Source of the DNA: Minisyncoccia bacterium
GTDB lineage: Bacteria; Patescibacteriota; Minisyncoccia; Phycocordibacterales; SBAW01
Assembly (NCBI GenBank): GCA_049997855.1
Contig: JBEKSG010000006.1
Span: forward strand, 1-58,777
Direction: 5' to 3'
DNA: 58,777 nt
Below are positions 6,184 to 58,777 of the stretch, one piece after another. The notes beneath the pieces are model-generated. The model worked only from the letters and a program-made list of their open reading frames with translations, ran no database searches and was not told the DNA's origin. Both the position numbers and the translations under genes were made by a program. How positions within the stretch are numbered: position 1 is the first letter of the stretch; every line of letters begins with the position of its first letter.

Positions 6184-7145
6184 AAGGCGTACAAGATGCG
6201 GAGGTGGCAGGCAAACGCGTACTGCTACGTGTCGACTACAACGTGCCGATCGAAAACAGCGTCATCACGAATGACTCGCGCATGCGCGCAACGCTGCCCA
6301 CTATCAACCTTTTGCGCGACAAAGGCGTAGCAAAAATTATGTTGGCGACGCACCTGGGTCGCCCCGGTAGCAAAGTGGTCGAGGAGTTGCGCACGGCGCC
6401 GCTTTTTGCACACTTGCGGACGTTGACCGACACTGCCAACATCGATATGCTCGAAAATCTGCGTTTTAATCCCGGTGAGGAAAGCAATGACCCCGCGTTT
6501 GCGGCAGAGCTTGCCTCCAAAGCGGATATATTTGTCAACGACGCGTTTGCCGCGTCGCACCGGGCACATGCCTCGATAGTCGGCGTTGCAAAATTGTTGC
6601 CCGCATATGCCGGTTTGCTTATGGAGCGGGAAATAGAAAAACTCTCCGCGGCGCTTGCGCCGCAAAAACCCTCGCTTGCCATTGTGAGCGGCGTCAAACT
6701 CGAAACAAAATTGCCGCTTATCGAAGTATTGGCAAAGATATACGACAAACTATTAGTGGGCGGCGCTTTAGCTGATGAGTACAAAGGCGGAGCGGTAAAT
6801 GTGTTGTTACCGGAAGATGGCATTCCCGAACGCGAACATATGTTTGATATCGGACCAAAGACGCGCGCAGTGTGGGCGGCAGAGATACAAAAAGCTGCGT
6901 TTGTATTATGGAATGGTCCTGTAGGTATGTACGAAAAAAGTGAGTACAGTGGTGGCACTAATGCTTTAGCGGCGGCACTCGCAAGCTCCGGAGCGCACGC
7001 AGTAATTGGCGGCGGAGATACTGATGAAGCGCTCGCGAAAGTACATTTCGACCCGGAAAAAGTTTTTATCTCAACCGGCGGGGGCGCCACGCTCGAGTTT
7101 GTAGCGAATGGCACGTTGCCGGGCATTGAAGTGCTCAAAGTCTAA
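6174..7145 (+). CDS. pgk: Phosphoglycerate kinase (short, 323 aa)
   Basis: RVDYNVP, ATHLGRP, NDAFAASHRAH, GGGDT, STGGGA motifs. Overlaps the tpiA end by 10 nt. Confidence 0.88.
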   Translation: MQVKGVQDAEVAGKRVLLRVDYNVPIENSVITNDSRMRATLPTINLLRDKGVAKIMLATHLGRPGSKVVEELRTAPLFAHLRTLTDTANIDMLENLRFNPGEESNDPAFAAELASKADIFVNDAFAASHRAHASIVGVAKLLPAYAGLLMEREIEKLSAALAPQKPSLAIVSGVKLETKLPLIEVLAKIYDKLLVGGALADEYKGGAVNVLLPEDGIPEREHMFDIGPKTRAVWAAEIQKAAFVLWNGPVGMYEKSEYSGGTNALAAALASSGAHAVIGGGDTDEALAKVHFDPEKVFISTGGGATLEFVANGTLPGIEVLKV

Positions 7146-7507: not shown

Positions 7508-9238
7508 ATGAAGAAAACGTACCGTCTGCGTAAGCGAGCGCACGAGGATCTACTCCAAGACCTTTTGCTGGAACGCGGCGTTACGAGCATTGAGGCTGCG
7601 GAGCAGTTTTTGTCGCCTGAGTATGAAGGCGGCTCGCATGACCCATTTTTGTTGCCCGACATGGCGCGCGCGGTAGAGCGAATACTTACCGCTCAAAAAA
7701 ACGCCGAGCGCGTGGCGGTGTGGAGCGACTACGACTGCGACGGCATACCGGGCGGTGTCATGCTTGCCGATTTTTTGCGCATACTCGGGCTTGTCGTGAC
7801 GCATTACATACCGCATCGGCATCGCGAGGGTTACGGATTAAACCAAGAGGGTATCGACGAGCTTGAGGAGCAGGGTGTCACACTTGTTATTACCATCGAC
7901 CTCGGTACCACCGAGCACGAACATATTTTATATGCCAAAACAAAAGGTATCGACGTGATTGTTACAGATCATCACATTGTGACAGTTGAAGAATTTTCCG
8001 CGCAAAAGTCCTCGGGTCGCCTACAAGAGCTCAACCAGACTTTTGCACAAAAAATTCTTCATCCTGCGTACGCGTTGATCAATCCAAAACGCCCGGACTC
8101 GCAGTATCCTTTTGATGGCTTGTGCGGTGCGGGTGTTGCCTGGAAGCTCGTGCAAGCTATTCTTTTGAAGAATCGTCCCGAGGGTTTTGCCGAGGGACGT
8201 GAAAAATGGTATTTGGATTTGGTTGGCATAGCAACGCTGTGCGACATGGTGCCTTTGGTAGGAGAAAATCGTATGCTCGCGCACTTTGGTTTGCGTGTCA
8301 TGCGTAAAGGTCGGCGACCCGGCCTCGCGGCGTTGCTCAAACTGCTCCGCATCAAACAAGAGACGCTCACGGAGGACGACATCGGTTTTATGATTGGTCC
8401 GCGCATCAACGCCGCGTCGCGCATGGACAGCCCCGACATAGCGGCGCGCTTGCTTGCCGCGACCGATGCCGAGGAGGCGGGAAAATTGGCATACTCACTC
8501 AACAAAATAAACGACGAGCGCAAAGGAGCGGTTGCTGTCATCATTAAAGAGATCAACAAACGTTTGCTTGGCAGCGACTTGAGCAAGAGCCCGCTTATTG
8601 TGATGGGCAATCCCAACTGGCGCCCGGGCATTTTGGGCCTTGTGGCGAGCTCGCTTGCGGATACGCACGGCAAGGCGGTGTTTTTGTGGGGCAGGGAAGG
8701 CGGCGAGATAATCCGCGGCTCGTGCCGCTCCGACGGCACAATCAACGTGGTCTCGCTCATGCAAACCGCGGGCGATGTTTTTGATCATTTTGGCGGGCAC
8801 TTTGCCTCGGGCGGATTTTCGGTCAGCGAGGAACGCGTACACGAACTTGCCGCGCGCCTCAACGGTGCGTACGCAAGCTGTGAGCGTGCGGATGATGCGG
8901 CAGAAGAAGTTGTAGTAGACAGACAATCGGAATTGGCCGAGCTGCCCTTTGCGCTCAAAAGTTTGGAGCGGCTCGCGCCGTTTGGCGTCGGCAACGAGAA
9001 GCCGCTTTTTATCTTTCAAAACATATCCATTACCAACATACGTGCGTTTGGCAAAGGGAACGACCATCTCGAGCTCTCGCTTGAGCAAAACGGCGCGCAT
9101 AGCGGAGCTATAGCCTTTTTTGCAACACCGGCATCGTTTCAAAAAACATTTTCAACGGGCGACCGCGTTGACACGGTCGGTCACATCGAGCGCGACTGGC
9201 ATGGGCAGCCCCGCATCCGCATCGTCGATATTGTATAA
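7508..9238 (+). CDS. recJ: Single-stranded-DNA-specific exonuclease RecJ
   Basis: DHH motifs (SDYDCDGI, VTDHH) and DHHA1 GGH...GG. The start is moved to the ATG at 7508 because the upstream ORF part overlaps the HIT gene. Confidence 0.88.
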   Translation: MKKTYRLRKRAHEDLLQDLLLERGVTSIEAAEQFLSPEYEGGSHDPFLLPDMARAVERILTAQKNAERVAVWSDYDCDGIPGGVMLADFLRILGLVVTHYIPHRHREGYGLNQEGIDELEEQGVTLVITIDLGTTEHEHILYAKTKGIDVIVTDHHIVTVEEFSAQKSSGRLQELNQTFAQKILHPAYALINPKRPDSQYPFDGLCGAGVAWKLVQAILLKNRPEGFAEGREKWYLDLVGIATLCDMVPLVGENRMLAHFGLRVMRKGRRPGLAALLKLLRIKQETLTEDDIGFMIGPRINAASRMDSPDIAARLLAATDAEEAGKLAYSLNKINDERKGAVAVIIKEINKRLLGSDLSKSPLIVMGNPNWRPGILGLVASSLADTHGKAVFLWGREGGEIIRGSCRSDGTINVVSLMQTAGDVFDHFGGHFASGGFSVSEERVHELAARLNGAYASCERADDAAEEVVVDRQSELAELPFALKSLERLAPFGVGNEKPLFIFQNISITNIRAFGKGNDHLELSLEQNGAHSGAIAFFATPASFQKTFSTGDRVDTVGHIERDWHGQPRIRIVDIV

Positions 9239-26609: not shown

Positions 26610-26654
26610 GCCGCGCCAAAAGGACGATTGCACGGCATGATTTCGACAAAATCA
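26610..26654 (+). repeat. 45-nt two-hairpin leader element, copy 1 (upstream of rplE)
   Basis: gccgcgccaaaaggacgattgcacggcatgatttcgacaaaatca; near-identical copies at 33358 (+) and 37713 (-). Confidence 0.9.
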
Positions 26655-33358: not shown

Positions 33359-33403
33359 CCGCGCCTTAAAGGACGATTGCGCGGCATGATTTCGGCAAAA
33401 TCA
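33358..33403 (+). repeat. 45-nt two-hairpin leader element, copy 2 (upstream of map)
   Basis: gccgcgccttaaaggacgattgcgcggcatgatttcggcaaaatca, ending 1 nt before the map ATG. Confidence 0.9.
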
Positions 33404-33404
33404 C

Positions 33405-34166
33405 ATGATTGCAAAAACCGAACAGGAAATAAACAATTTGCGCCTGGGAGGCAAGCTTCTCTCCCATGCGCTGCGCGAACTTTCTGCACGGGCGGTGCCG
33501 GGCGTTACTACCGCCTCGCTTGATGTTGCTGCGGAGAAAATTATTCGCGAGGGTGGGGGAATGCCGGCATTTTTAAACTATCTGCCCGACGGCGCGGCGT
33601 ATCCTTTCCCCGCAACCCTGTGCGTGTCGATCAACGAGGAAGTGGTGCACGGCATCCCTTCGGCAGAGCGCGTGCTCAAAGGAGGCGACATGGTCTCGCT
33701 CGACCTTGGGCTCTCGTACAACGGCTATTTTGTCGACTCGGCTGTCACCGTGTGCGTGGGCGTGTGCGATGAGGTTGCGTACAAACTTATCAAAGCGACC
33801 AAAGAGGCAATGACGGCTGGCATCAAAGCTGCGCGCATGGGCGCACGCATAGGCGACATCAGTGCGGCCATAGAAGCTGTGGCTCAAAAATATAATTTTG
33901 CAGTGGTAAAAGATCTGGGCGGGCATGCGGTAGGCAAAGCCGTGCACGAAAAACCGTACATCCCCAACGAGGGTACCGCTGGCACGGGCCAGAAGCTGCC
34001 GGAGGGTTTGGTGATAGCAATCGAACCGATGTTCGCCGAAGGCAACGGCGCCATCACACTTATGAAAGACGAGTGGACCTATTGCATGCGCGACAAAAAA
34101 CGCTGTGCACACGTTGAGCATACCATCATTATCACCAACAAAGGTCCTGAGATTTTAACCGAATAG
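33405..34166 (+). CDS. map: Type I methionine aminopeptidase
   Basis: 253-aa ORF; VHGIP, D..D metal ligands, GHAVG, EPM, and HVEHTI motifs. Confidence 0.95.
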   Translation: MIAKTEQEINNLRLGGKLLSHALRELSARAVPGVTTASLDVAAEKIIREGGGMPAFLNYLPDGAAYPFPATLCVSINEEVVHGIPSAERVLKGGDMVSLDLGLSYNGYFVDSAVTVCVGVCDEVAYKLIKATKEAMTAGIKAARMGARIGDISAAIEAVAQKYNFAVVKDLGGHAVGKAVHEKPYIPNEGTAGTGQKLPEGLVIAIEPMFAEGNGAITLMKDEWTYCMRDKKRCAHVEHTIIITNKGPEILTE

Positions 34167-37511: not shown

Positions 37512-37712
37512 TTAATTCTTTGACTTTGCAGCCGTTTTAATAAAGCGCTGGGATACTTTGGGTGTCACCGAGTAGCTTTGTGTGCGGTTGGTACCCATTT
37601 GGGTGCGGCGGCTCTCCTTGGCGTTAAAATGGTTTTGGCCGGGATGGCGTGCGGTAAGCTTGCCATTTTTGCTGATTTTGAGGCGCTTGGTAAATGATTT
37701 GTTGGTTTTCAT
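37512..37712 (-). CDS. rpmI: 50S ribosomal protein L35
   Basis: 66-aa basic ORF in the canonical infC-rpmI-rplT order. Confidence 0.9.
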   Translation of the reverse strand: MKTNKSFTKRLKISKNGKLTARHPGQNHFNAKESRRTQMGTNRTQSYSVTPKVSQRFIKTAAKSKN

Positions 37713-37758
37713 GCGATTTTGTCGAAATCGTGCCGCGCAATCGTCCTTTTGGCGCGGC
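37713..37758 (-). repeat. 45-nt two-hairpin leader element, copy 3 (upstream of rpmI)
   Basis: The minus strand reads gccgcgccaaaaggacgattgcgcggcacgatttcgacaaaatcgc, immediately followed by the rpmI ATG. Confidence 0.9.
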
Positions 37759-46724: not shown

Positions 46725-46796
46725 GGGCGCGTAGCTCAGCGGTAGAGCAGCCGTCTTATACACGGCCGGTCCCTGGTTCGAGCCCAGGCGCGCCCA
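46725..46796 (+). tRNA. tRNA-Ile with anticodon UAU
   Basis: Perfect cloverleaf: acceptor GGGCGCG/CGCGCCC, D stem GCTC/GAGC, anticodon stem GCCGT/ACGGC with loop CTTATAC, T arm CCTGG-TTCGAGC-CCAGG. No encoded CCA. Confidence 0.85.
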
Positions 46797-46804
46797 CAAA
46801 ACAA

Positions 46805-50293: not shown

Positions 50294-51898
50294 CTAACGG
50301 AGAGGTGCCAGAGCGGTCGAATGGAGCAACCTGCTAAGTTGTTGTCCGGGAAACTGGACCGAGGGTTCGAATCCCTCCCTCTCCGCAATAGGTAGGACAG
50401 GACTAGATATATCAAAATTATTTTGGGCTTCACGCAGTGAAGCCCATTGTGGTTGAGCCACGCCGCGCGCTTCGCGCGTATGTAAGGAAAGGTTGGAGCC
50501 GAAGATTTTTTGGAGGGAGAGTTTTTTGGAGGGGAGGTCGTTCGATTTTTCCGTTTCATTAAGTAATGAAGCGTCCTTTATGAAATCTCGCAGAGGTTGG
50601 AGCCAAAGCGTAGCGTCATGCTCCAGTCGGACGATCTGCTCCTCGGCCGACTTGCGCTCAGACATGAGCGCACGCCTCCGCTCAAGATAGGTGTCGCGGT
50701 CTATGTCCTGCTCGGAATAGAGGTCAACGAAGCGGCTCATCTTGCCGTCCAGTTGAGCAATTTTGGTTCGCAAGTCTTGCACGGCAGTCATAGCAACGGA
50801 TTCGGCTTTCTGCTCGTCTTCGTTAGCCAAACGATATAACTCTTGCGTCCAGTCCGTAGGCATAACGTAGAGCGAAAGCAGGTCGGAGAGTTGAGCACTC
50901 AATACCTCCTCGCGGATATAGGACTGCGAACAGACACCGCGTTTCTTGGTACAGCGATAGTAGACGTAGCGGTGGACGTTCCCGTTCTTCTGATGCTTCG
51001 TGATAACTTCTCCGGTTATCATCCCGCCGCACTCGCCGCAACGCATGATGCCGCACAAGGGCTGCGGCTCGTTCTTGGGCTTATGGCGTTGTCTGCCGCG
51101 CAACTCTAAAACGTCCTGCACTCTGTCGAAAACAGCTTTTGAAATGAGCGGAGTATGCACGCCTTTGTATATCTCTCCGGCATACTCAAAATGGCCGTAG
51201 TAGAAGGAGTTGGTGAGCATCTTCTTGATGCTGTCTTTCTTTAGGGACTTGTCGCCACTGCTGCCGGACTTCTTGATCTGCTTGGTTCTGATACCACGCT
51301 CGTACAGAAAAGCCGATACATCTTCAAAACGGGATTTGTTCTCGGCGTACAGCTCGAAGGCTGCTCGTATAGCCGGAGCTTTGCGGCGATCAACTTCAAC
51401 ACGCTTGGTACGCGGATTATTTATGTAGCCCAACGGAGCAAGCCCCGGATACTCTCCGCGTCTCGCTTTCTCGCGTTGTCCTCGTTTCGTGTTCGCGCTC
51501 AAATCGCGGATGTACTGGTTCGCCATACCTAACTCAACAGACATCATCAATACGTTATCGGCAGGCAGAAAACTGCGGTCGTGGGTTTGTATGTGCTGAA
51601 TGACGCTCTGCTGCAAAAGCCAGCTTATCTGTCCACCGTCTACGGGATTGCGTGCGAGGCGGTCTATCTTCCAACACACAATGCCCTGCGCCTCTCCCGC
51701 GATGATGTGCCGGATCATTTCGTTGAAAACGGGACGGCCCGGCTTCTTGGCTGACTGTTTCTCCACGAACTCGGATACGATCTCCAAACCCTCGCGCTTG
51801 GCGAGGGAGCGCAACTCGGAAAGCTGCGCGTCTATCGAGAGGACTTGCTTGTCCTCGACATCGGTAGATTTGCGGGCGTAGAGGAAGTAGGTAGACAT
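50294..51898 (-). CDS. Large serine recombinase (resolvase/invertase N-domain, recombinase domain, zinc ribbon with coiled coil)
   Basis: YARKSTDVED (catalytic Ser), DRLARN, and CGECGG...YYRC motifs. The last about 80 codons run through IR1-L and then antisense through tRNA-Ser, so the true C-terminus is uncertain. Confidence 0.88.
   Translation of the reverse strand: MSTYFLYARKSTDVEDKQVLSIDAQLSELRSLAKREGLEIVSEFVEKQSAKKPGRPVFNEMIRHIIAGEAQGIVCWKIDRLARNPVDGGQISWLLQQSVIQHIQTHDRSFLPADNVLMMSVELGMANQYIRDLSANTKRGQREKARRGEYPGLAPLGYINNPRTKRVEVDRRKAPAIRAAFELYAENKSRFEDVSAFLYERGIRTKQIKKSGSSGDKSLKKDSIKKMLTNSFYYGHFEYAGEIYKGVHTPLISKAVFDRVQDVLELRGRQRHKPKNEPQPLCGIMRCGECGGMITGEVITKHQKNGNVHRYVYYRCTKKRGVCSQSYIREEVLSAQLSDLLSLYVMPTDWTQELYRLANEDEQKAESVAMTAVQDLRTKIAQLDGKMSRFVDLYSEQDIDRDTYLERRRALMSERKSAEEQIVRLEHDATLWLQPLRDFIKDASLLNETEKSNDLPSKKLSLQKIFGSNLSLHTREARGVAQPQWASLREAQNNFDISSPVLPIAEREGFEPSVQFPGQQLSRLLHSTALAPLR
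50299..50385 (+). tRNA. tRNA-Ser with anticodon GCU
   Basis: Type II tRNA: acceptor GGAGAGG/CCTCTCC, D arm CCA-GAGCGGTCGAA-TGG, anticodon loop CTGCTAA, long variable arm GTCC..GGAC, T arm GAGGG-TTCGAAT-CCCTC. Confidence 0.9.
50384..50540 (+). repeat. Inverted repeat IR1, left copy
   Basis: 157/157 match to the reverse complement of 54456-54612. Contains GGGCTTCAC-gca-GTGAAGCCC and CGCGCG-ctt-CGCGCG hairpins. Confidence 0.95.
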
Positions 51899-52164: not shown

Positions 52165-53253
52165 ATGAAAGATATTGATTTAGTCATGCCGCCAAAAGCA
52201 CTGCAAACAAATCTATTTGGAGACAAGATCAAGTCCCACAAGCTTCCAAAGACACAGTATTTGGGGAGTAAGGAGCGTTTAGTAAATTGGATATATGACA
52301 ATGCCCCTAAAGATATTGAGACCGTCTTAGATGCTTTTAGCGGCACATCCGTTGTCGGTTATATTTTTAAGTCGAAAGGCAAAAAAGTTATTGGGAACGA
52401 TTTTCTAAAATTCAATTTCCACATTGGTAAGGCAGTGATTGAAAACAACAATCAGACTCTTGATGAGGATGATCTATCAACTCTCTTTAGGAAAAATAAA
52501 CAAGCGCAGACTTTGATTGAAGATGTTTTTACTGGAGTATTTTTTGAACGTGAACAGGCACAATTTCTAGATAATTTTCGAGCAAATGTGAATTTGCTCC
52601 GAAATGAAATTAAGCAGTCTCTCGCTTTAGCAGTTATGAGCCGCGCACTGACTCGCAAAATTCTGCTAGGTCACTTCGCACATCTAAGTGCATTGAGATA
52701 TAGCAAAGACCCGTTGAGGATAAAAAGAAATCCAACAATTGCTCGACCCTTACAGGATTTATTCTTGGAATTGGTTGGTGAATACAACAATGCTGTTTTC
52801 GACAACGGCAAAAATAACAAATTTTATTGTGAGGACACAATACAACTTGTCTCAAAGCTGAAAGGGATTGATCTGGTATACTTCGATCCACCCTATTGTG
52901 GCTGCCATCCTGATTATCAGGCGTTCTATCACTTCTTGGAGACCTTCGTCGAATATTGGAAAGATAAAGAATTTATCAACGGCACAAAACAATATTTCCC
53001 TAAAAAAGAAAGTGGTTTTGTGCAAAAAACGGAGATTATTGACTCATTTGCAAAATTGTTCGAGGCCAGTGATCATATACCGTATTGGCTAATTTCATAT
53101 AACAGTAAAAGTTATCCGGAAAAGGATACAATGATTGAACTTATAAAAAAACATAAGCAGGTAAAAGTATATGAATACGAATATGAAAATCATTATGGTG
53201 GCAAGGGTTCGAGGAAAGGGACAAAAGAGTATCTTTTCTACTGTTTTAATTAA
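52165..53253 (+). CDS. N6-adenine DNA methyltransferase (D12/Dam-like class)
   Basis: YLGSK N-terminal motif, FSGTS AdoMet motif, and catalytic DPPY. Confidence 0.85.
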   Translation: MKDIDLVMPPKALQTNLFGDKIKSHKLPKTQYLGSKERLVNWIYDNAPKDIETVLDAFSGTSVVGYIFKSKGKKVIGNDFLKFNFHIGKAVIENNNQTLDEDDLSTLFRKNKQAQTLIEDVFTGVFFEREQAQFLDNFRANVNLLRNEIKQSLALAVMSRALTRKILLGHFAHLSALRYSKDPLRIKRNPTIARPLQDLFLELVGEYNNAVFDNGKNNKFYCEDTIQLVSKLKGIDLVYFDPPYCGCHPDYQAFYHFLETFVEYWKDKEFINGTKQYFPKKESGFVQKTEIIDSFAKLFEASDHIPYWLISYNSKSYPEKDTMIELIKKHKQVKVYEYEYENHYGGKGSRKGTKEYLFYCFN

Positions 53254-53259
53254 AAAATT

Positions 53260-54357
53260 ATGAATAAGTTCAAGCAACTGAAACAACTTTATCAAGACAA
53301 TAAATTTGATGTCTTGCTGAAAGACCCTGAGAGTGTCTATTGGCTCAAACTACGCTCAATCTCTCGAAAGGAATTGATGGTTGATTTTTGTATGGAGAAC
53401 GGAATTAGTTGTACAGGGATAAGAGGCGCGGCACTCTTTGAACATATCTACGATTCTAAGCCTGACGAGAAAGTTGTCGATAAGTTCATAGCACAAAAAT
53501 ATTCTGTTGAACGAGCAGCAAGAAAAGCGAATGAGACCAAACTTATCTCGGAGTTGTATAAAATGAAAGTGCTCGATTGGGGAGGACTTTACCAAAACAA
53601 TCTTGAGAGAACGATTGTCGATAATTACATAAAGAAAATTACTGATTTCGACCTTCTCAACGAAAAAATTGAAAAAGAAATCCACGCGAGCATGCGTGGA
53701 TACGTCCAGTCGTCGTGGTTTAATCACTGGACATCAATTTTGATAGAGGATATTGTCAAGGACAACAAAAAAGTCATTCCTACTGTTGGCTTGATTAAGA
53801 AAGTGGACTTCTTCATCTCAAACGTCCCCTTTGATCTGAAAGTCACATATTTCCCAGAAGGTTATATGTTGGCAAGACGTAAAACCTTAGGCCTGCCTAC
53901 TGAAATCAAACTCCTAAAAAGATTTTCGAAAGCTAAGGGTATCCGGTACGACAAAACTCAAAAGGACAAAGCTCTGATGTCGGAATTACTTACGCGTATC
54001 TCGGAAAGAACCGACATAGAATCCAAGAGATTTATTGAGGAATTTAAAGCGGCTAGGTGGAAAATAGTTGAAGATACCATTAAAGATAAGAAATCTCTCA
54101 TCCGGTGGCTTTACGAGGAACAGGGTGAACGTAGATTTGATGCCGCAAATCGACTTTTCTTAGTACTGATCGATAAGGAGAACATGGAGGATAGTTGGAA
54201 AATGAAAAGAAATATCGAGTTGTTGGGCGATGAAGTAAATGCTTATCTCGATAAATTCAATCCTAAGGACACATCGACCCTCGACATTGAATTTGATTGG
54301 ATGGATGGCAAAAAATATAATACTGTTTCTGACGCGATATTTATCGTCAAAAAATAA
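53260..54357 (+). CDS. Probable type II restriction endonuclease
   Basis: 365-aa ORF directly after the methyltransferase. Carries a PD-(D/E)XK-like signature VDFF...FDLKV. No other recognisable domain. Confidence 0.55.
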   Translation: MNKFKQLKQLYQDNKFDVLLKDPESVYWLKLRSISRKELMVDFCMENGISCTGIRGAALFEHIYDSKPDEKVVDKFIAQKYSVERAARKANETKLISELYKMKVLDWGGLYQNNLERTIVDNYIKKITDFDLLNEKIEKEIHASMRGYVQSSWFNHWTSILIEDIVKDNKKVIPTVGLIKKVDFFISNVPFDLKVTYFPEGYMLARRKTLGLPTEIKLLKRFSKAKGIRYDKTQKDKALMSELLTRISERTDIESKRFIEEFKAARWKIVEDTIKDKKSLIRWLYEEQGERRFDAANRLFLVLIDKENMEDSWKMKRNIELLGDEVNAYLDKFNPKDTSTLDIEFDWMDGKKYNTVSDAIFIVKK

Positions 54358-54455: not shown

Positions 54456-54612
54456 CGACCTCCCCTCCAAAAAACTCTCCCTCCAAAAAATCTTCGGCTC
54501 CAACCTTTCCTTACATACGCGCGAAGCGCGCGGCGTGGCTCAACCACAATGGGCTTCACTGCGTGAAGCCCAAAATAATTTTGATATATCTAGTCCTGTC
54601 CTACCTATTGCG
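54456..54612 (-). repeat. Inverted repeat IR1, right copy (duplicates the 3' end of the recombinase gene)
   Basis: Exact reverse complement of 50384-50540. This explains the track ORF 54421..54654. Confidence 0.95.
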
Positions 54613-54775
54613 CAGCTCTACTGCGTTCTTAGAACCCATTTTAGCAGAAAATGAGACTTCTAGGGTAGTCATTCGGGCGTGATCTACCCCTTCATTCACC
54701 CCTTCATTCGACCTACACCGGAATGAAGGGGTAGCTCCTCTCGATATTGGCTTCAACACTCGCTCTTTGCCATAT

Positions 54776-54934
54776 CCTCGCGAAAAAACTCAACCCCTAC
54801 TTCACTCCGCAACACCCCGTGTGTTGCTCCGTGAAGGACGGCCACGGAGTACCGTGTCCGTCCGCCCCCGTTCGAGTCCGGTGGCTCGGCCTTCTCCTTC
54901 CGTCCTGCTGTCTCTTTTTGCTCGTGTGGGGGGG
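54776..54934 (+). repeat. Inverted repeat IR2, left copy
   Basis: Matches the reverse complement of 58618-58777, with 2 substitutions and a G7/C8 homopolymer difference at the inner edge. Contains three consecutive hairpins and a GTTCGAGTCC T-loop-like motif. Confidence 0.9.
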
Positions 54935-55004: not shown

Positions 55005-55880
55005 TTGGATGTGTCTAGTGAACCAAAACCACGTCGTCAAAAGTTCGTTCGAGGTGAAGCCGACCCCCTCAGATTGACGTCCCGCGACACCGCAATTCTT
55101 TCCGATGTGGCCGAGTACCGCTTTTTGAATACGGAACAACTTCTGTCTTTGCACGAAGGGAGCCGCCGCAACATCGTTGAGCGATTGAGCCTTCTCTACC
55201 ATCACCACTTTCTTGATAGGCCAAAGGTGCAAAAAGCGGCAAACCTAGCGTCTGCCCATGTCGTCTATTCTCTCGACCGAAAAGGCGTTGATGTATTAGC
55301 CAAGGACGCGCAGGAGCGGCAAGGAATTTTGCGCCGCGTGCAGGAGGTTAAACACACGTCGCCCCTCATCGCTCACGCTTTGATGATCTCACAATTCCGC
55401 GTTTGCCTTACGCTCGCGCTCAAAAGTCGTCCGAGTGTAAAGCTCATACGCTGGACGCAGGGCAACGATCTAAAAACTCTGTTGCGGCATCGCGGCGAAA
55501 ATCCCGAACTCGTGCCGGATGCCTTTTTCATTCTAGATACGTCCGAGTTTAAGTACCCGTGTTTTCTCGAAGCGGATCGCGGGACGATGACGGAGGAGAG
55601 GTTTGTAAATAAGCTCCGGCTATACTGGCGGCACTACCGCGAGGATCGTTTCAACAAGACGCTCGGCATTTCCCATTTCCGCGTCCTCACCATTACCCCG
55701 AACGAAGCGCGGAGCGCGAACTTGTGCCGCGCCGCCAAAGAAGCCGACGACCGCAAGCAAGGCAGTGGCATGTTTCTATTTATGTCCGAGACAGCATACG
55801 GGACGACGAGGCCGGACGAGCTGTTGAAGGAGGCCTGGAAATGTCCGAAATTCGATACGATGCAGGGTATCATTCATTGA
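55005..55880 (+). CDS. Replication-relaxation family protein (wHTH plus PD-(D/E)XK-like core)
   Basis: 291-aa ORF; LTSRDTAILSDVAEYRFLNTEQL, PDAFFILD, and FLEADRGTM motifs. Confidence 0.65.
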   Translation: MDVSSEPKPRRQKFVRGEADPLRLTSRDTAILSDVAEYRFLNTEQLLSLHEGSRRNIVERLSLLYHHHFLDRPKVQKAANLASAHVVYSLDRKGVDVLAKDAQERQGILRRVQEVKHTSPLIAHALMISQFRVCLTLALKSRPSVKLIRWTQGNDLKTLLRHRGENPELVPDAFFILDTSEFKYPCFLEADRGTMTEERFVNKLRLYWRHYREDRFNKTLGISHFRVLTITPNEARSANLCRAAKEADDRKQGSGMFLFMSETAYGTTRPDELLKEAWKCPKFDTMQGIIH

Positions 55881-56022: not shown

Positions 56023-56871
56023 ATGAGTCATCTTGGAGATATACAGTATGCAGGCGTGGCCGGGATATCGAGAGATTGCGAAGACGCCGTTCTACGGTTC
56101 CTGCAATACGGGGATCGGATAACGAAGGTGCGAATCCTTTCCGCAAACGCAACTCATTGTTTGCTGCTTACCACTAATTCGGGCGATCTTGTTGCGATCA
56201 AAACTGGCTTCGCGTCCGGCTATAACGGCGAGGGGCCGCGGCGCTTTTCGTATGTGCTCGCGATTCTCGATGCCTATGAGATTGAGATAGAGGAGTACGA
56301 CGTGAAAGGGTCGCTCCTAACACGCGTTGATAATTCCGCACTAGAAAAGTCAGATCTTGATGTAATCAAGAATACGCGTCCGGTACGGGGTGCCCGTTGG
56401 CGCGATTACGTTTACCTTGAACACGAAGATCCAAAACAGTGGGATGCACTATGGCAAGAGTTTCCTCCTGCAATTCCGTTCGGTATCATCGACAGCAGGA
56501 TCATTGATCTCGCAATCTCGTTCTGGGAGAATCCAGACGATAAGATTTTTACAGGATACCGCCGTCTTGAAGATATCGTTCGAGAAAGGATTGGTAGCAA
56601 AGAACACGGCGCAGAATTGTTCTCTCGCGCTTTTTTAGGATCGCCCCCTCAGCTTGGATGGAAAGACATTCATAACGGGAGTGAACAGGCGGGTAGAGCG
56701 AATCTATTTAAAGATGCGTATCTTGCATACCGTAATCCTCGTGGGCATAGGGAGCCGAAGCAAGGCCATCAAGCCCGACAAAATCTTAGAGAATTTCTCC
56801 TTCTGAATCATCTCTATACTCTCGAAAAGGAGGCTATTCCGATGGAGGTTGCCGAAAGTAAAACTCTATAA
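56023..56871 (+). CDS. Two-domain protein with a C-terminal TIGR02391/Ymh-type domain
   Basis: The C-terminal pattern LFSRAF...GRANLFKDAYLAYRNPRGHRE...REFLLLNHLY matches my memory of the Ymh family. The N-domain is unknown. Confidence 0.55.
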   Translation: MSHLGDIQYAGVAGISRDCEDAVLRFLQYGDRITKVRILSANATHCLLLTTNSGDLVAIKTGFASGYNGEGPRRFSYVLAILDAYEIEIEEYDVKGSLLTRVDNSALEKSDLDVIKNTRPVRGARWRDYVYLEHEDPKQWDALWQEFPPAIPFGIIDSRIIDLAISFWENPDDKIFTGYRRLEDIVRERIGSKEHGAELFSRAFLGSPPQLGWKDIHNGSEQAGRANLFKDAYLAYRNPRGHREPKQGHQARQNLREFLLLNHLYTLEKEAIPMEVAESKTL

Positions 56872-56916
56872 GTTATCTGCTCTTCAACTTTTGCGAGAAA
56901 GGACTAAAGTGGTAAA

Positions 56917-57111
56917 ATGGCTAATATGAAACAGCAATCTAAGAAAACGAAGACGGCAAAAAAGCTTATAGACCTGTATGAGCAGTATCAGGTATTCAGA
57001 CGTGTTTCTGAAATGGCACCAAAAAGGAAACTACTCCCTTTTACGCTCGATCAGGAAATAGAGAGCATAAATCCCTACTATGTACGAAATGAAAACGTGA
57101 ACTATGGCTAA
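56917..57111 (+). CDS. Small basic hypothetical protein
   Basis: 64-aa ORF overlapping the next gene's start by 8 nt (translational coupling). Confidence 0.45.
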   Translation: MANMKQQSKKTKTAKKLIDLYEQYQVFRRVSEMAPKRKLLPFTLDQEIESINPYYVRNENVNYG

Positions 57112-58138
57112 GAATGAAGACGAAGTGAGAGAGCCGGAGGTCTTGCCTCTACCAGATTCGCAACAGCAACCCAAACAGGTGAGTACATTCGAGGAACCAT
57201 ACTTTATGAGTCTCGAAAGAGACAAGCAGCAAAGTAAAAGGGCTTTTGAAGACAGTAGAAAAAACGCGCGAGTAGAAAGAATAAAGGCGATACAGAATAT
57301 TAGGGGCGGATCTAAGATCGTCGTTTATTATTCGATTGGTACTTTGACCGCAAACGACGCAGAAATTCTTTTCGACCTCCTTCAGAGTGTTGGTAAACAG
57401 AAAAAACTTGATCTGTTTTTACTAAGCCCCGGTGGTTATGTTGACCCCGCTTTTAAAATGGCGAAGATGTGCCGTGACTTCGCTGAAGAAAAATTTGGAA
57501 TAATAATTCCGCACTACGCGAAAAGTGCGGCCACTCTCCTTTCTCTCGGAGGCGACGAACTGGTGATGGGATCTGCATCGGAAATCGGGCCGATAGATCC
57601 ACAAATTGAGATAATGGATGAATATGGTAGAAAATTTAATGTTTCAGCGAACTCTGTCGAGGATGCTCTAGAAGTCATCGAGGAGCACTCGGCTGGCGAT
57701 CCCATAAAGTCTTTGAAGTACATGCCGTTGATAGAAAAAATCAACTTGAACACTCTTGGCCAATATCGAAGGGCGTTGGATAGCTCTAAGCAATATGCGA
57801 AAGATTTATTAAAGACGGGGAAACTTCTCAAGAAGAGAGACGCGAAAACAATAGAATCAGTTGCGAATAAATTAGCAACTTATTATTTTTCGCATGCTTA
57901 TCCAATCAAAACCGATGTTGCGGCAAGGGAACTACATTTTAACGTCGTAGATGCAAGCGCGAATAAACCACTCTGGCAAGCTATGTGGCAGCTCCATAAG
58001 CTTTATGATGCGATGATAAAAGAATCACGCACCGACAAAACGATGATAACTACAATTTTTGAAGCGGAAGAGTTCAGCGTATCAATGACGAAATCTCTAG
58101 TACAAGAGCAAGAACAATATGAGCAAAGAAGAAAATAA
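57104..58138 (+). CDS. SDH-family ClpP-fold serine proteinase
   Basis: LDLFLLSPGGYVDPAFKM, YAKSAATLLSLGGDE, and IGPIDPQ motifs. Confidence 0.7.
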   Translation: MAKNEDEVREPEVLPLPDSQQQPKQVSTFEEPYFMSLERDKQQSKRAFEDSRKNARVERIKAIQNIRGGSKIVVYYSIGTLTANDAEILFDLLQSVGKQKKLDLFLLSPGGYVDPAFKMAKMCRDFAEEKFGIIIPHYAKSAATLLSLGGDELVMGSASEIGPIDPQIEIMDEYGRKFNVSANSVEDALEVIEEHSAGDPIKSLKYMPLIEKINLNTLGQYRRALDSSKQYAKDLLKTGKLLKKRDAKTIESVANKLATYYFSHAYPIKTDVAARELHFNVVDASANKPLWQAMWQLHKLYDAMIKESRTDKTMITTIFEAEEFSVSMTKSLVQEQEQYEQRRK

Positions 58139-58520
58139 AACTGAGCGGCCAATATTGCAGTTCTCTGTCCTATGCGATGGAATCGCCACTCCGAAGGAAA
58201 TGGGGAATAAGCCCGTTTTCATTGGCGTATTCAGTAGTTTATTAAGGCCGATGGCACTGCCTCAGTTTTTTATTGTTAATAGATGGATAAGTGGCCTCGG
58301 CGAGCATACGCAGATAATCAAAATACTTGATCCGGATTTGAAAGAAATAGCAAAAACCCAAGCCCAAAAGTTGGTTCTAACATCAAAGGTGGGTTCTGCC
58401 GATGTAGTTAATGCGTTTGTAAATCTAAATTTCCCTAAGGCGGGAGTATATTGGATAAAAATCGAACTTGATGAAAAAACCGCGATGTCGTATCCGCTTC
58501 CGGTTTTTGAAATGAAGTAA
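58119..58520 (+). CDS. Small hypothetical protein, translationally coupled to the protease gene
   Basis: 133-aa ORF overlapping the preceding gene by 20 nt. Beta-rich composition with no catalytic motif recognised. Confidence 0.5.
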   Translation: MSKEENKTERPILQFSVLCDGIATPKEMGNKPVFIGVFSSLLRPMALPQFFIVNRWISGLGEHTQIIKILDPDLKEIAKTQAQKLVLTSKVGSADVVNAFVNLNFPKAGVYWIKIELDEKTAMSYPLPVFEMK

Positions 58521-58538: not shown

Positions 58539-58571
58539 GCTCACGGCCATGCGGCCGTGAGCTTTTATTTT
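58539..58571 (+). terminator. Rho-independent terminator
   Basis: 10-bp stem GCTCACGGCC/GGCCGTGAGC followed by TTTTATTTT. Confidence 0.8.
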
Positions 58572-58617: not shown

Positions 58618-58777
58618 CCCCCCCCACACGAGCAAAAAGAGACAGTAGGACGGAAGGAGAAGGCCGAGCCACCGGACGCGAACGGGGGCGGACGGACACG
58701 GTACTCCGTGGCCGTCCTTCACGGAGCAACACACGGGGTGTTGCGGAGTGAAGTAGGGGTTGAGTTTTTTCGCGAGG
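58618..58777 (-). repeat. Inverted repeat IR2, right copy (truncated by the window end)
   Basis: Its reverse complement aligns base for base with 54776-54934, apart from 2 substitutions. Confidence 0.9.

Follow-up and report, generated by a model that had tools for sequence, protein, structure and literature searches.

ImmR/ImmA are repressor-protease pairs of integrative elements and phages, in which ImmA is a zinc metalloprotease. In IetAS the protease, IetS, is subtilisin-like and its partner is an AAA ATPase. For HEPN genes found in restriction-modification (R-M) loci (PrrC, RloC, Ymh), Anantharaman et al. (2013, PMC3710099) give the concept of a suicide module that backs up restriction. 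IetAS of pTiC58 is described, where PMC13069673 cites Yamamoto 2009 for it, as a stability toxin-antitoxin system with a serine protease that is also anti-phage. Few defence systems beyond R-M have been described in the Patescibacteria; ldgA and ddgA ('Dallas') are defence genes restricted to this group, which were obtained by functional selection and are active in E. coli (PMC12366544). These are coding sequences without an assigned function, and a protease is not mentioned in their description; ddgA appears as a single gene in the preprint supplement and Dallas as something more complex in the journal version (PMC12366544). Here we analyse a contig of a Minisyncoccia bacterium (JBEKSG010000006.1, 58,777 nucleotides; this whole stretch is called the window), which carries a cassette of three genes, referred to below as the trio. 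They encode a small basic protein, a ClpP-fold serine protease of the SDH type, and a DUF6941 protein. The trio follows a gene of the Ymh family, and the original prediction, made from the sequence of this stretch, had taken all four genes together as a candidate defence or abortive-infection module.

The conserved unit is the three genes, which form a previously undescribed cassette of the ultra-small Patescibacteria. Loci for comparison came from three sources: genomes, contigs retrieved through exact look-up of proteins, and a set of 80 metagenome loci with DUF6941 at the centre. The trio is near-exclusive to Patescibacteria and its taxonomic distribution is patchy; the clade is small, about 100–130 sequence clusters among billions of proteins, and homologues of the protease with at least 38% identity form about 100 clusters, mainly on short contigs. 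An SDH protease lies directly upstream of DUF6941 (at least 49% identity) in 45 of 45 metagenome loci, and the same order is seen in loci from eight distinct genome contigs (L007–L014). The small gene overlaps the start of the protease gene in all 30 distinct complete loci, by 8–32 nt (using crude starts for the open reading frames, ORFs), and in these loci DUF6941 either overlaps the protease gene or starts no more than 9 nt after it. Pairwise identities are strongly correlated between the protease and DUF6941 (r = 0.93) and between the protease and the tail of the small protein (r = 0.95), the observed value being reached in none of 2000 permutations of a Mantel test. Given this constant co-occurrence and the correlated identities, the three genes are inherited as one unit and their proteins co-evolve. 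The translationally coupled arrangement around an SDH-type ClpP-fold protease, as originally predicted, is thus a conserved one, and the catalytic residues are intact.

The gene in front of the trio differs from locus to locus. In the window it is the Ymh gene; in the closest genome relative, a Saccharibacteria metagenome-assembled genome (MAG) with a protease 82% identical, an HNH gene takes the first position; and a Paceibacteria MAG has no gene upstream on the same strand. When the ORFs of 166 loci were searched with phmmer and hidden Markov models (HMMs), the Ymh and Replic_Relax genes of the window adjoined the trio only in copies of the window sequence itself, and the four-gene module was rejected. 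The neighbourhood comparison proposed with that module therefore gave a divided answer: the protease and the two small proteins co-occur in other genomes, and the Ymh gene does not accompany them. The best-supported reading of the region is that a small mobile island carries two conflict-type units independent of each other, one being the single Ymh/HEPN gene and the other the three-gene cassette.

The Ymh gene is thus a stand-alone neighbour and not a conserved member of the cassette. Sequence searches of this and the other window proteins used Pfam, NCBIfam, PHROGs and PADLOC-DB v2. The Ymh protein matches PF09509 (Hypoth_Ymh) over residues 172–264 with 42.3 bits, against a gathering score of 25, and TIGR02391 with 25.7 bits, against a curated cut-off of 39.45; PADLOC gives weak matches (~2e-4) to the HEPN proteins Aga_HEPN and PD-Lambda-3_B. 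It consists of a conserved alpha/beta N-terminal domain followed by a HEPN domain, whose R-x4-6-H motif is R237-N-P-R-G-H242, with R237, N238 and H242 invariant in 28 homologues. There are more than 500 full-length homologues (53–61% identity) in bacteria and archaea, with hosts including Acidobacteria, Thermoplasmata and Nitrososphaera. These cover ~85–100% of the length, so the N-terminal domain, which had at first matched nothing recognisable, is conserved within a two-domain protein of wide occurrence. The three homologues whose surroundings were examined lie beside other defence or housekeeping genes, the defence neighbours being a HEPN gene with an AAA_13 ATPase and a Qat system with ParE, and the trio is absent from all three. 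The AlphaFold2 model has a pLDDT (predicted local distance difference test) of 88 and a single significant fold match, the hypothetical protein 1wn9; a search of the PDB by sequence gave no match. The protein is predicted to be an RNase of the abortive-infection type, of a kind common beside R-M systems. The family has been described as 'Solos and fusions... In operon with R-M' (PMC3710099), and the gene here fits this, with an R-M system beside it; the original prediction had named restriction systems, or prophage regions, as the usual setting of such domains.

How, then, does the trio compare with the systems described above? With IetAS it shares a serine protease as the presumed toxic or effector part of a small module on mobile DNA. 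However, the trio protease has a ClpP fold, there is no ATPase in the unit, PADLOC finds no match and the sequences are unrelated. The resemblance to type II toxin-antitoxin systems lies in a small upstream overlapping gene, in a tail that occurs with or without an XRE helix-turn-helix (HTH) domain, and in the mobile DNA; the trio differs in having three genes and a ClpP-fold protease as the presumed toxin. One sub-clade of the trio places an XRE HTH protein beside a protease in DNA rich in mobile elements, as in ImmR/ImmA, but the trio protease is a serine enzyme, the small protein of the window has no HTH, and DUF6941 is extra. The likeness to the HEPN genes embedded in R-M loci is confined to the Ymh gene, which lies beside an R-M system, whereas the trio lacks a HEPN domain and is tied to R-M by position only. 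Phage prohead proteases and the membrane proteases NfeD and SppA share the ClpP/crotonase-type fold with the trio protease and give weak profile matches, but the trio protease has its Ser-Asp-His in the SDH order and has neither structural-gene nor stomatin neighbours. Finally, ldgA and ddgA resemble the trio in being restricted to Patescibacteria and differ in having no protease in their description, a comparison made by description only. The original prediction did not recognise the gene combination as a named defence system, and this stands, in that searches of PADLOC-DB v2 with the three proteins of the trio gave no match at E ≤ 0.1.

The protease matches PF01972 (SDH_protease) with 65.1 bits (gathering score 31.3, E = 7e-18) over residues 44–308, and phrog_11747, a PHROG without known function, with E = 1e-39. 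The match to the NCBIfam model NF047768 (Clp_like_SDH) is 75.5 bits, below the equivalog cut-off of 250, and places it in the same superfamily only. In an alignment of 19 sequences, reaching down to 24% identity, S141, D165 and H264 are invariant, and it is this order, Ser-Asp-His, that names the family. Also invariant are S108, G110 and G111 in an SPGG stretch, which we propose forms the oxyanion-hole turn. Both motifs picked out originally, YAKSAATLLSLGGDE and IGPIDPQ, are present. By these residues the protease appears catalytically intact. The nearest solved structures are NfeD (PH1510) and ClpP, with marginal E-values, and none is close. Inspection by eye, without a predictor, shows no membrane segment or signal peptide, and we propose that the enzyme is cytoplasmic. 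We know of no described biological role for SDH-type proteases, and full-text literature searches found no relevant paper for SDH_protease or PF01972.

A separate three-gene arrangement around an SDH protease is seen in actinobacterial loci (L030, L031, L033, L035, L046 and L047, at about position 8000), including a Streptomyces plasmid. There the protease follows a protein of 110–116 residues with paired Cys/His motifs (FDCPCxxGH ... GRCHY), which is itself usually preceded by a protein of ~490–550 residues (354 by a crude ORF call in L031), and all the genes overlap.

Weak matches of the protease to NCBIfam NF045542 (E = 2e-6) and to PHROG head-maturation families (E = 5e-5 and weaker) raise the question of whether the trio is a remnant of a prophage head-maturation module, with a prohead protease and scaffold or decoration proteins; it is in keeping with this that, by structure, DUF6941 is matched best by a phage protein, itself uncharacterised. 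The original prediction had itself named such genes as an alternative that would count against it. The stronger matches of the protease, however, are to the non-structural SDH family and to the PHROG without known function, and in the ~55 loci read there is no portal, capsid or terminase gene near the trio. Profile scans of IMG/VR with DUF6941 and the protease found no trio, no DUF6941 and no small protein; they found only distant proteases, which across the greater part of their length are at most 36% identical, and two matches that were short and partial. A tblastn search of GenBank phages with a divergent copy of DUF6941 gave nothing useful. A head-maturation remnant is thus extremely improbable, and we regard it as effectively excluded.

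Distant SDH proteases do occur in GenBank phages, in accessory positions. In Gordonia phage BeeGee the gene follows minor tail genes, and in phages of Porphyromonas gingivalis it comes right after HicAB, with a small upstream ORF of its own. In Porphyromonas phage phage027a_F0568 (L210, 2762–4789) this ORF encodes 112 residues, and HicA/HicB and the protease sit amid head and neck genes. The insertion of HicAB and the protease among such genes points to SDH proteases being accessory cargo in phages as well.

The first protein of the trio has 59–67 residues across the loci, with an invariant NPxY core that in most of them reads NPYY. Y24, N52, P53, Y55 and Y63 are invariant, and Y21, L44 and Y54 are found in at least 90% of sequences; searches of Pfam, NCBIfam, PHROGs and PADLOC brought up nothing for the protein of the window, which has a Lys-rich N-terminus. 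Roizmanbacteria, WWE3, Peregrinibacteria and relatives form a sister sub-clade, in which the same position is held by a protein of 128–144 residues, made up of an XRE HTH_3 domain and then the same tail as the short forms. When the short forms are made into an HMM, it aligns with the last ~60 residues of these longer proteins, collinearly over the whole model. Small ORFs upstream of out-group SDH proteases were also considered as homologues and rejected (hhalign probability 0.4%); they resemble the small gene of the trio in position alone.

The fused form suggests another function for the trio, namely a regulatory switch without killing, in which the protease cleaves an XRE-type repressor, or a derivative reduced to the tail, in the manner of ImmR/ImmA, and so switches the expression of the element or of R-M genes. 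One sub-clade does have the XRE HTH fused to the tail directly before the protease, and the trio is found on or near mobile elements with a large serine recombinase, Replic_Relax or an integrase fragment. Most members, however, including that of the window, have no DNA-binding domain, so that DNA binding cannot be the core function of the small protein. In most loci, moreover, the flanks are R-M and housekeeping genes, with no genes for the life cycle of an element, and the ImmA-type proteases are zinc metallopeptidases of another fold. We consider such a switch unlikely.

The last protein of the trio, which had also gone unrecognised, matches PF22091 (DUF6941) over nearly its full length with 59.7 bits (E = 5e-16). 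Since this exceeds the gathering score of 27, it is a member of a catalogued family, itself without an assigned function, which has 520 representatives at 50% identity among 1.84 billion proteins. Full-text searches found no paper on DUF6941. The AlphaFold2 model (mean pLDDT 87) is an all-beta sandwich. Its matches in the PDB are at the level of the fold only, with TM (template modelling) scores of about 0.45–0.5, to PDE6delta/UNC119-like sandwiches and, more faintly, to the B. subtilis intracellular proteinase inhibitor (3isy, TM about 0.45), which is too little to indicate function. Among viral proteins, the best structural match (TM 0.73) is to one from Anoxybacillus phage A403, which is uncharacterised. 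Near the more distant SDH proteases (at most 37% identity) no DUF6941 match was found even at E = 10. One MAG, labelled Planctomycetia, has the usual DUF6941 after the protease and also a second, divergent copy (L009:1041–1445), which lies 121 nt before the small gene; an HNH gene lies farther upstream and a gene for a zeta-toxin-like kinase downstream.

The features of the locus are collected in Table 1. The reading frames, the 45-nt gap between the Ymh gene and the small gene, and the overlaps of 8 nt (small gene and protease) and 20 nt (protease and DUF6941) were all reproduced as predicted, on the + strand. Each of the four ORFs has many homologues, and they are therefore genuine genes and do not arise by chance. 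The strong terminator reported at the end of the unit was also recovered: it has a stem of 10 pairs (8 of them G-C) with a loop of 4 at 58539–58562, followed by TTTTATTTT, the tail of the hairpin being TTTTATTTTC. A promoter-like site upstream of the small gene, at 56891–56918, runs over the start codon of that gene, and promoter-like sites are no commoner at the locus than in shuffled sequence. A separate promoter for the trio is therefore unsupported, and in the window the trio is probably co-transcribed with the Ymh gene.

Table 1. Features of the trio locus and its surroundings, in window coordinates.
Feature	Position	Strand	Basis
Large serine recombinase, 534 aa	50294–51898	-	
tRNA-Ser	50299–50386		
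D12 methyltransferase and putative restriction enzyme	52165–54357		Pfam/homology
Left arm of the 179-nt inverted repeat around Replic_Relax, Ymh and trio	54756–54934	.	full 179 nt in the independent JGI contig L001
Replic_Relax (replication/relaxase-type) gene, start of repeat-bounded segment; context only	55005–55880	+	PF13814 E = 3e-24; phrog_9381
Ymh-family HEPN protein, 282 aa	56023–56871	+	PF09509
Small basic protein, 64 aa (trio gene 1)	56917–57111	+	position upstream of protease, homologues
SDH-type ClpP-fold serine protease, 344 aa (trio gene 2)	57104–58138	+	PF01972
DUF6941 protein, 133 aa, all-beta sandwich (trio gene 3)	58119–58520	+	PF22091
Intrinsic-terminator-like hairpin and T run, closing the unit	58539–58571	+	stem/loop/tail
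Right arm of the same 179-nt inverted repeat	58619–58777	.	98.9% complementary to left arm; runs off the window end, 20 nt more in L001

The window is chromosomal DNA of a Patescibacteria-type organism, whose FtsH clusters at 90% identity or more with a protein of Candidatus Paceibacterota. The gene content changes at about 50.3 kb. From there on the window carries, in order, the tRNA-Ser gene, the large serine recombinase gene on the minus strand, an XRE HTH gene, the D12 methylase, a putative restriction enzyme of 365 residues, the Replic_Relax gene (phrog_9381 is annotated 'replication initiation by nicking'), and then the Ymh gene and the trio. The GC content is 0.37–0.47 at 52–58 kb and 0.47–0.59 in the rest of the window, and the predicted AT-rich mobile setting beside an R-M system is thus confirmed. 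The island consists of two adjacent segments of ~3.7–3.9 kb beside tRNA-Ser, each inside its own near-perfect inverted repeat of 160–179 nt: the first, with arms at 50381–50540 and 54456–54615, holds the recombinase and the R-M genes, and the second, whose right arm ends at 58797 when L001 is included, carries Replic_Relax, the Ymh gene and the trio. Two independent assemblies have the second half of the island as a separate contig of 3.8–4.2 kb, with the breaks at the repeats. A chromosomal contig of 258 kb from the Joint Genome Institute (JGI) ends at window position 54733 and overlaps the second-half contig by 127 nt. The repeat-bounded segments may reflect inversion, excision or an integrated small plasmid. 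As a general feature of the cassette the inverted repeats were rejected, since no other fetched locus had a match. The ORF of the recombinase crosses the first repeat arm and the whole of tRNA-Ser before its stop codon, and profile matches end near residue 430, so that integration at the tRNA may have created its C-terminus or changed it.

In other loci, too, the trio usually lies close behind R-M or nuclease genes. A gene on the same strand lies 3–121 nt upstream in about 22 of 31 readable loci, and where there is such a gene within ~120 nt it is an R-M component or a nuclease in about 9 of 10 readable cases: MutH-like, TdeIII, Eco57I methylase, N6_N4 methylase, GmrSD with HNH, HsdS, HNH or PBECR2. 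In L109, the gene 3 nt before the trio is a homologue (E = 3e-25) of the putative restriction enzyme of the window. Among 81 clusters of neighbours, within three genes of the trio, the top Pfam families are N6_N4_Mtase, N6_Mtase, HNH, Methylase_S, GmrSD_N, Hypoth_Ymh and Eco57I, with recombinases and one transposase also present, and the PADLOC picture agrees.

This adjacency invites the idea that the trio is an accessory that controls the nuclease or R-M system upstream of it (here the Ymh HEPN RNase) by proteolysis, the effector being swappable. The trio would dock downstream of unrelated systems (type I, II and IV, HNH, HEPN, PBECR2) and, once restriction has been subverted, turn them or the cell on or off through cleavage. 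If this were true, it would be a protease-based second line of defence with interchangeable effectors, specific to reduced Patescibacteria genomes. The idea draws on the upstream genes just listed, nearly always nuclease or R-M parts and diverse in kind (HEPN, HNH, MutH-like, TdeIII, GmrSD, type I HsdS, PBECR2), and on the small gene of the window having no convincing promoter of its own. Yet several of the genes upstream encode methylases or specificity subunits belonging to R-M systems that are complete and self-sufficient; a same-strand upstream partner is missing in L004, L103, L105, L113 and L117; the Ymh family is widespread without the trio; and the adjacency is explained just as well if independent systems simply cluster in defence islands. 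Control of an upstream effector is thus improbable in our view, and we are just as doubtful of docking onto interchangeable R-M systems; a controlling accessory is the closest form in which the four-gene idea survives, and as such has the same small chance.

The reading that we favour, to which we give an even chance, is that the trio is a protease-based cassette resembling toxin-antitoxin or abortive-infection systems. We infer its defence role from context, and a role in plasmid addiction is equally compatible with the data. Its first gene looks antitoxin-like: it is small, upstream of the protease gene and overlapping it, and its tail is shared with XRE-HTH proteins. We propose a mechanism in which the protease is held in restraint, because of this toxin-antitoxin-like first gene, the intact enzyme, the attachment to R-M genes, the patchy distribution on mobile DNA, the position of the trio outside housekeeping operons, and the precedent of IetAS. 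We infer the protein interactions, trigger, targets and phenotype as follows. The three proteins would be made in coupled amounts and form a complex. The small protein would act like a type II antitoxin, its tail binding the protease as an inhibitor or as a sacrificial substrate, and the optional HTH domain would provide autoregulation; DUF6941 might be a subunit that confers specificity or acts as a sensor. The inhibition would be lifted when a phage infects, when the neighbouring restriction system fails, or when the element is lost. The released protease would then cleave host or phage proteins and stop growth or phage development, the outcome being abortive infection or post-segregational killing.

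Several observations weigh against a conflict function. R-M genes dominate the defence islands of Patescibacteria in any case, and the enrichment of R-M genes around the trio, having no background control, is descriptive only. The homology between the tail and the HTH proteins has weak scores (10–22 bits), backed by synteny. The lack of any PADLOC match counts on the same side. In addition, relatives of DUF6941 at 32–38% identity never accompany a protease, and many of them lie between trpB and trpA, in the order trpC-trpF-trpB-DUF6941-trpA, with frequent overlap of a few bases with trpB or trpA (L135, L138, L140, L144, L145, L153, L158, L160, L161, L164 and L166, at about position 7000 in the long loci); others adjoin argJ (L139, L154, L157 and L162). 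DUF6941 is therefore not inherently a conflict domain, and it was rejected as a marker of the module when taken alone.

These trp and arg operon relatives lend themselves to a plainer account, in which the enzyme is an ordinary cellular protease that, with its two partners, serves processing or quality control and lies in variable regions by chance. SDH-type proteases are indeed widespread across phyla, often with an unrelated small ORF upstream. Such an account fits poorly with the patchy distribution of the trio in related genomes and its place on a low-GC mobile island, with its tight placement against R-M genes, and with the small size of the clade, and we give it a low probability.

Two other features of the window were noted. 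A motif of ~45 nt (GCCGCGCC-AAAAGGACGATT-GCGCGGCA-GATTTCG-CAAAATC) occurs at 26610–26653 (+), 33360–33408 (+) and 37709–37758 (-). It can form a hairpin with AAGGA in the loop, and stands from a few to ~10 bases before the start codons of three genes, one L35-like, one like methionine aminopeptidase, and a third. Rfam has no family that matches it at the gathering threshold, and it may be a shared leader or regulatory element. At 46725–46797 there is a gene for tRNA-Ile with the anticodon TAT, which is unusual in bacteria, where AUA is mostly decoded by a CAU tRNA modified with lysidine.

The unit to be cloned for functional work is three genes and not four, and since ldgA and ddgA act in E. 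coli, a heterologous test of the trio is realistic. The Patescibacteria make up a large share of bacterial diversity. If it is functional, the trio would be a new protease-based conflict module, would give the first functional handle on the small tail protein and on DUF6941, and would provide SDH-type proteases with a biological role.

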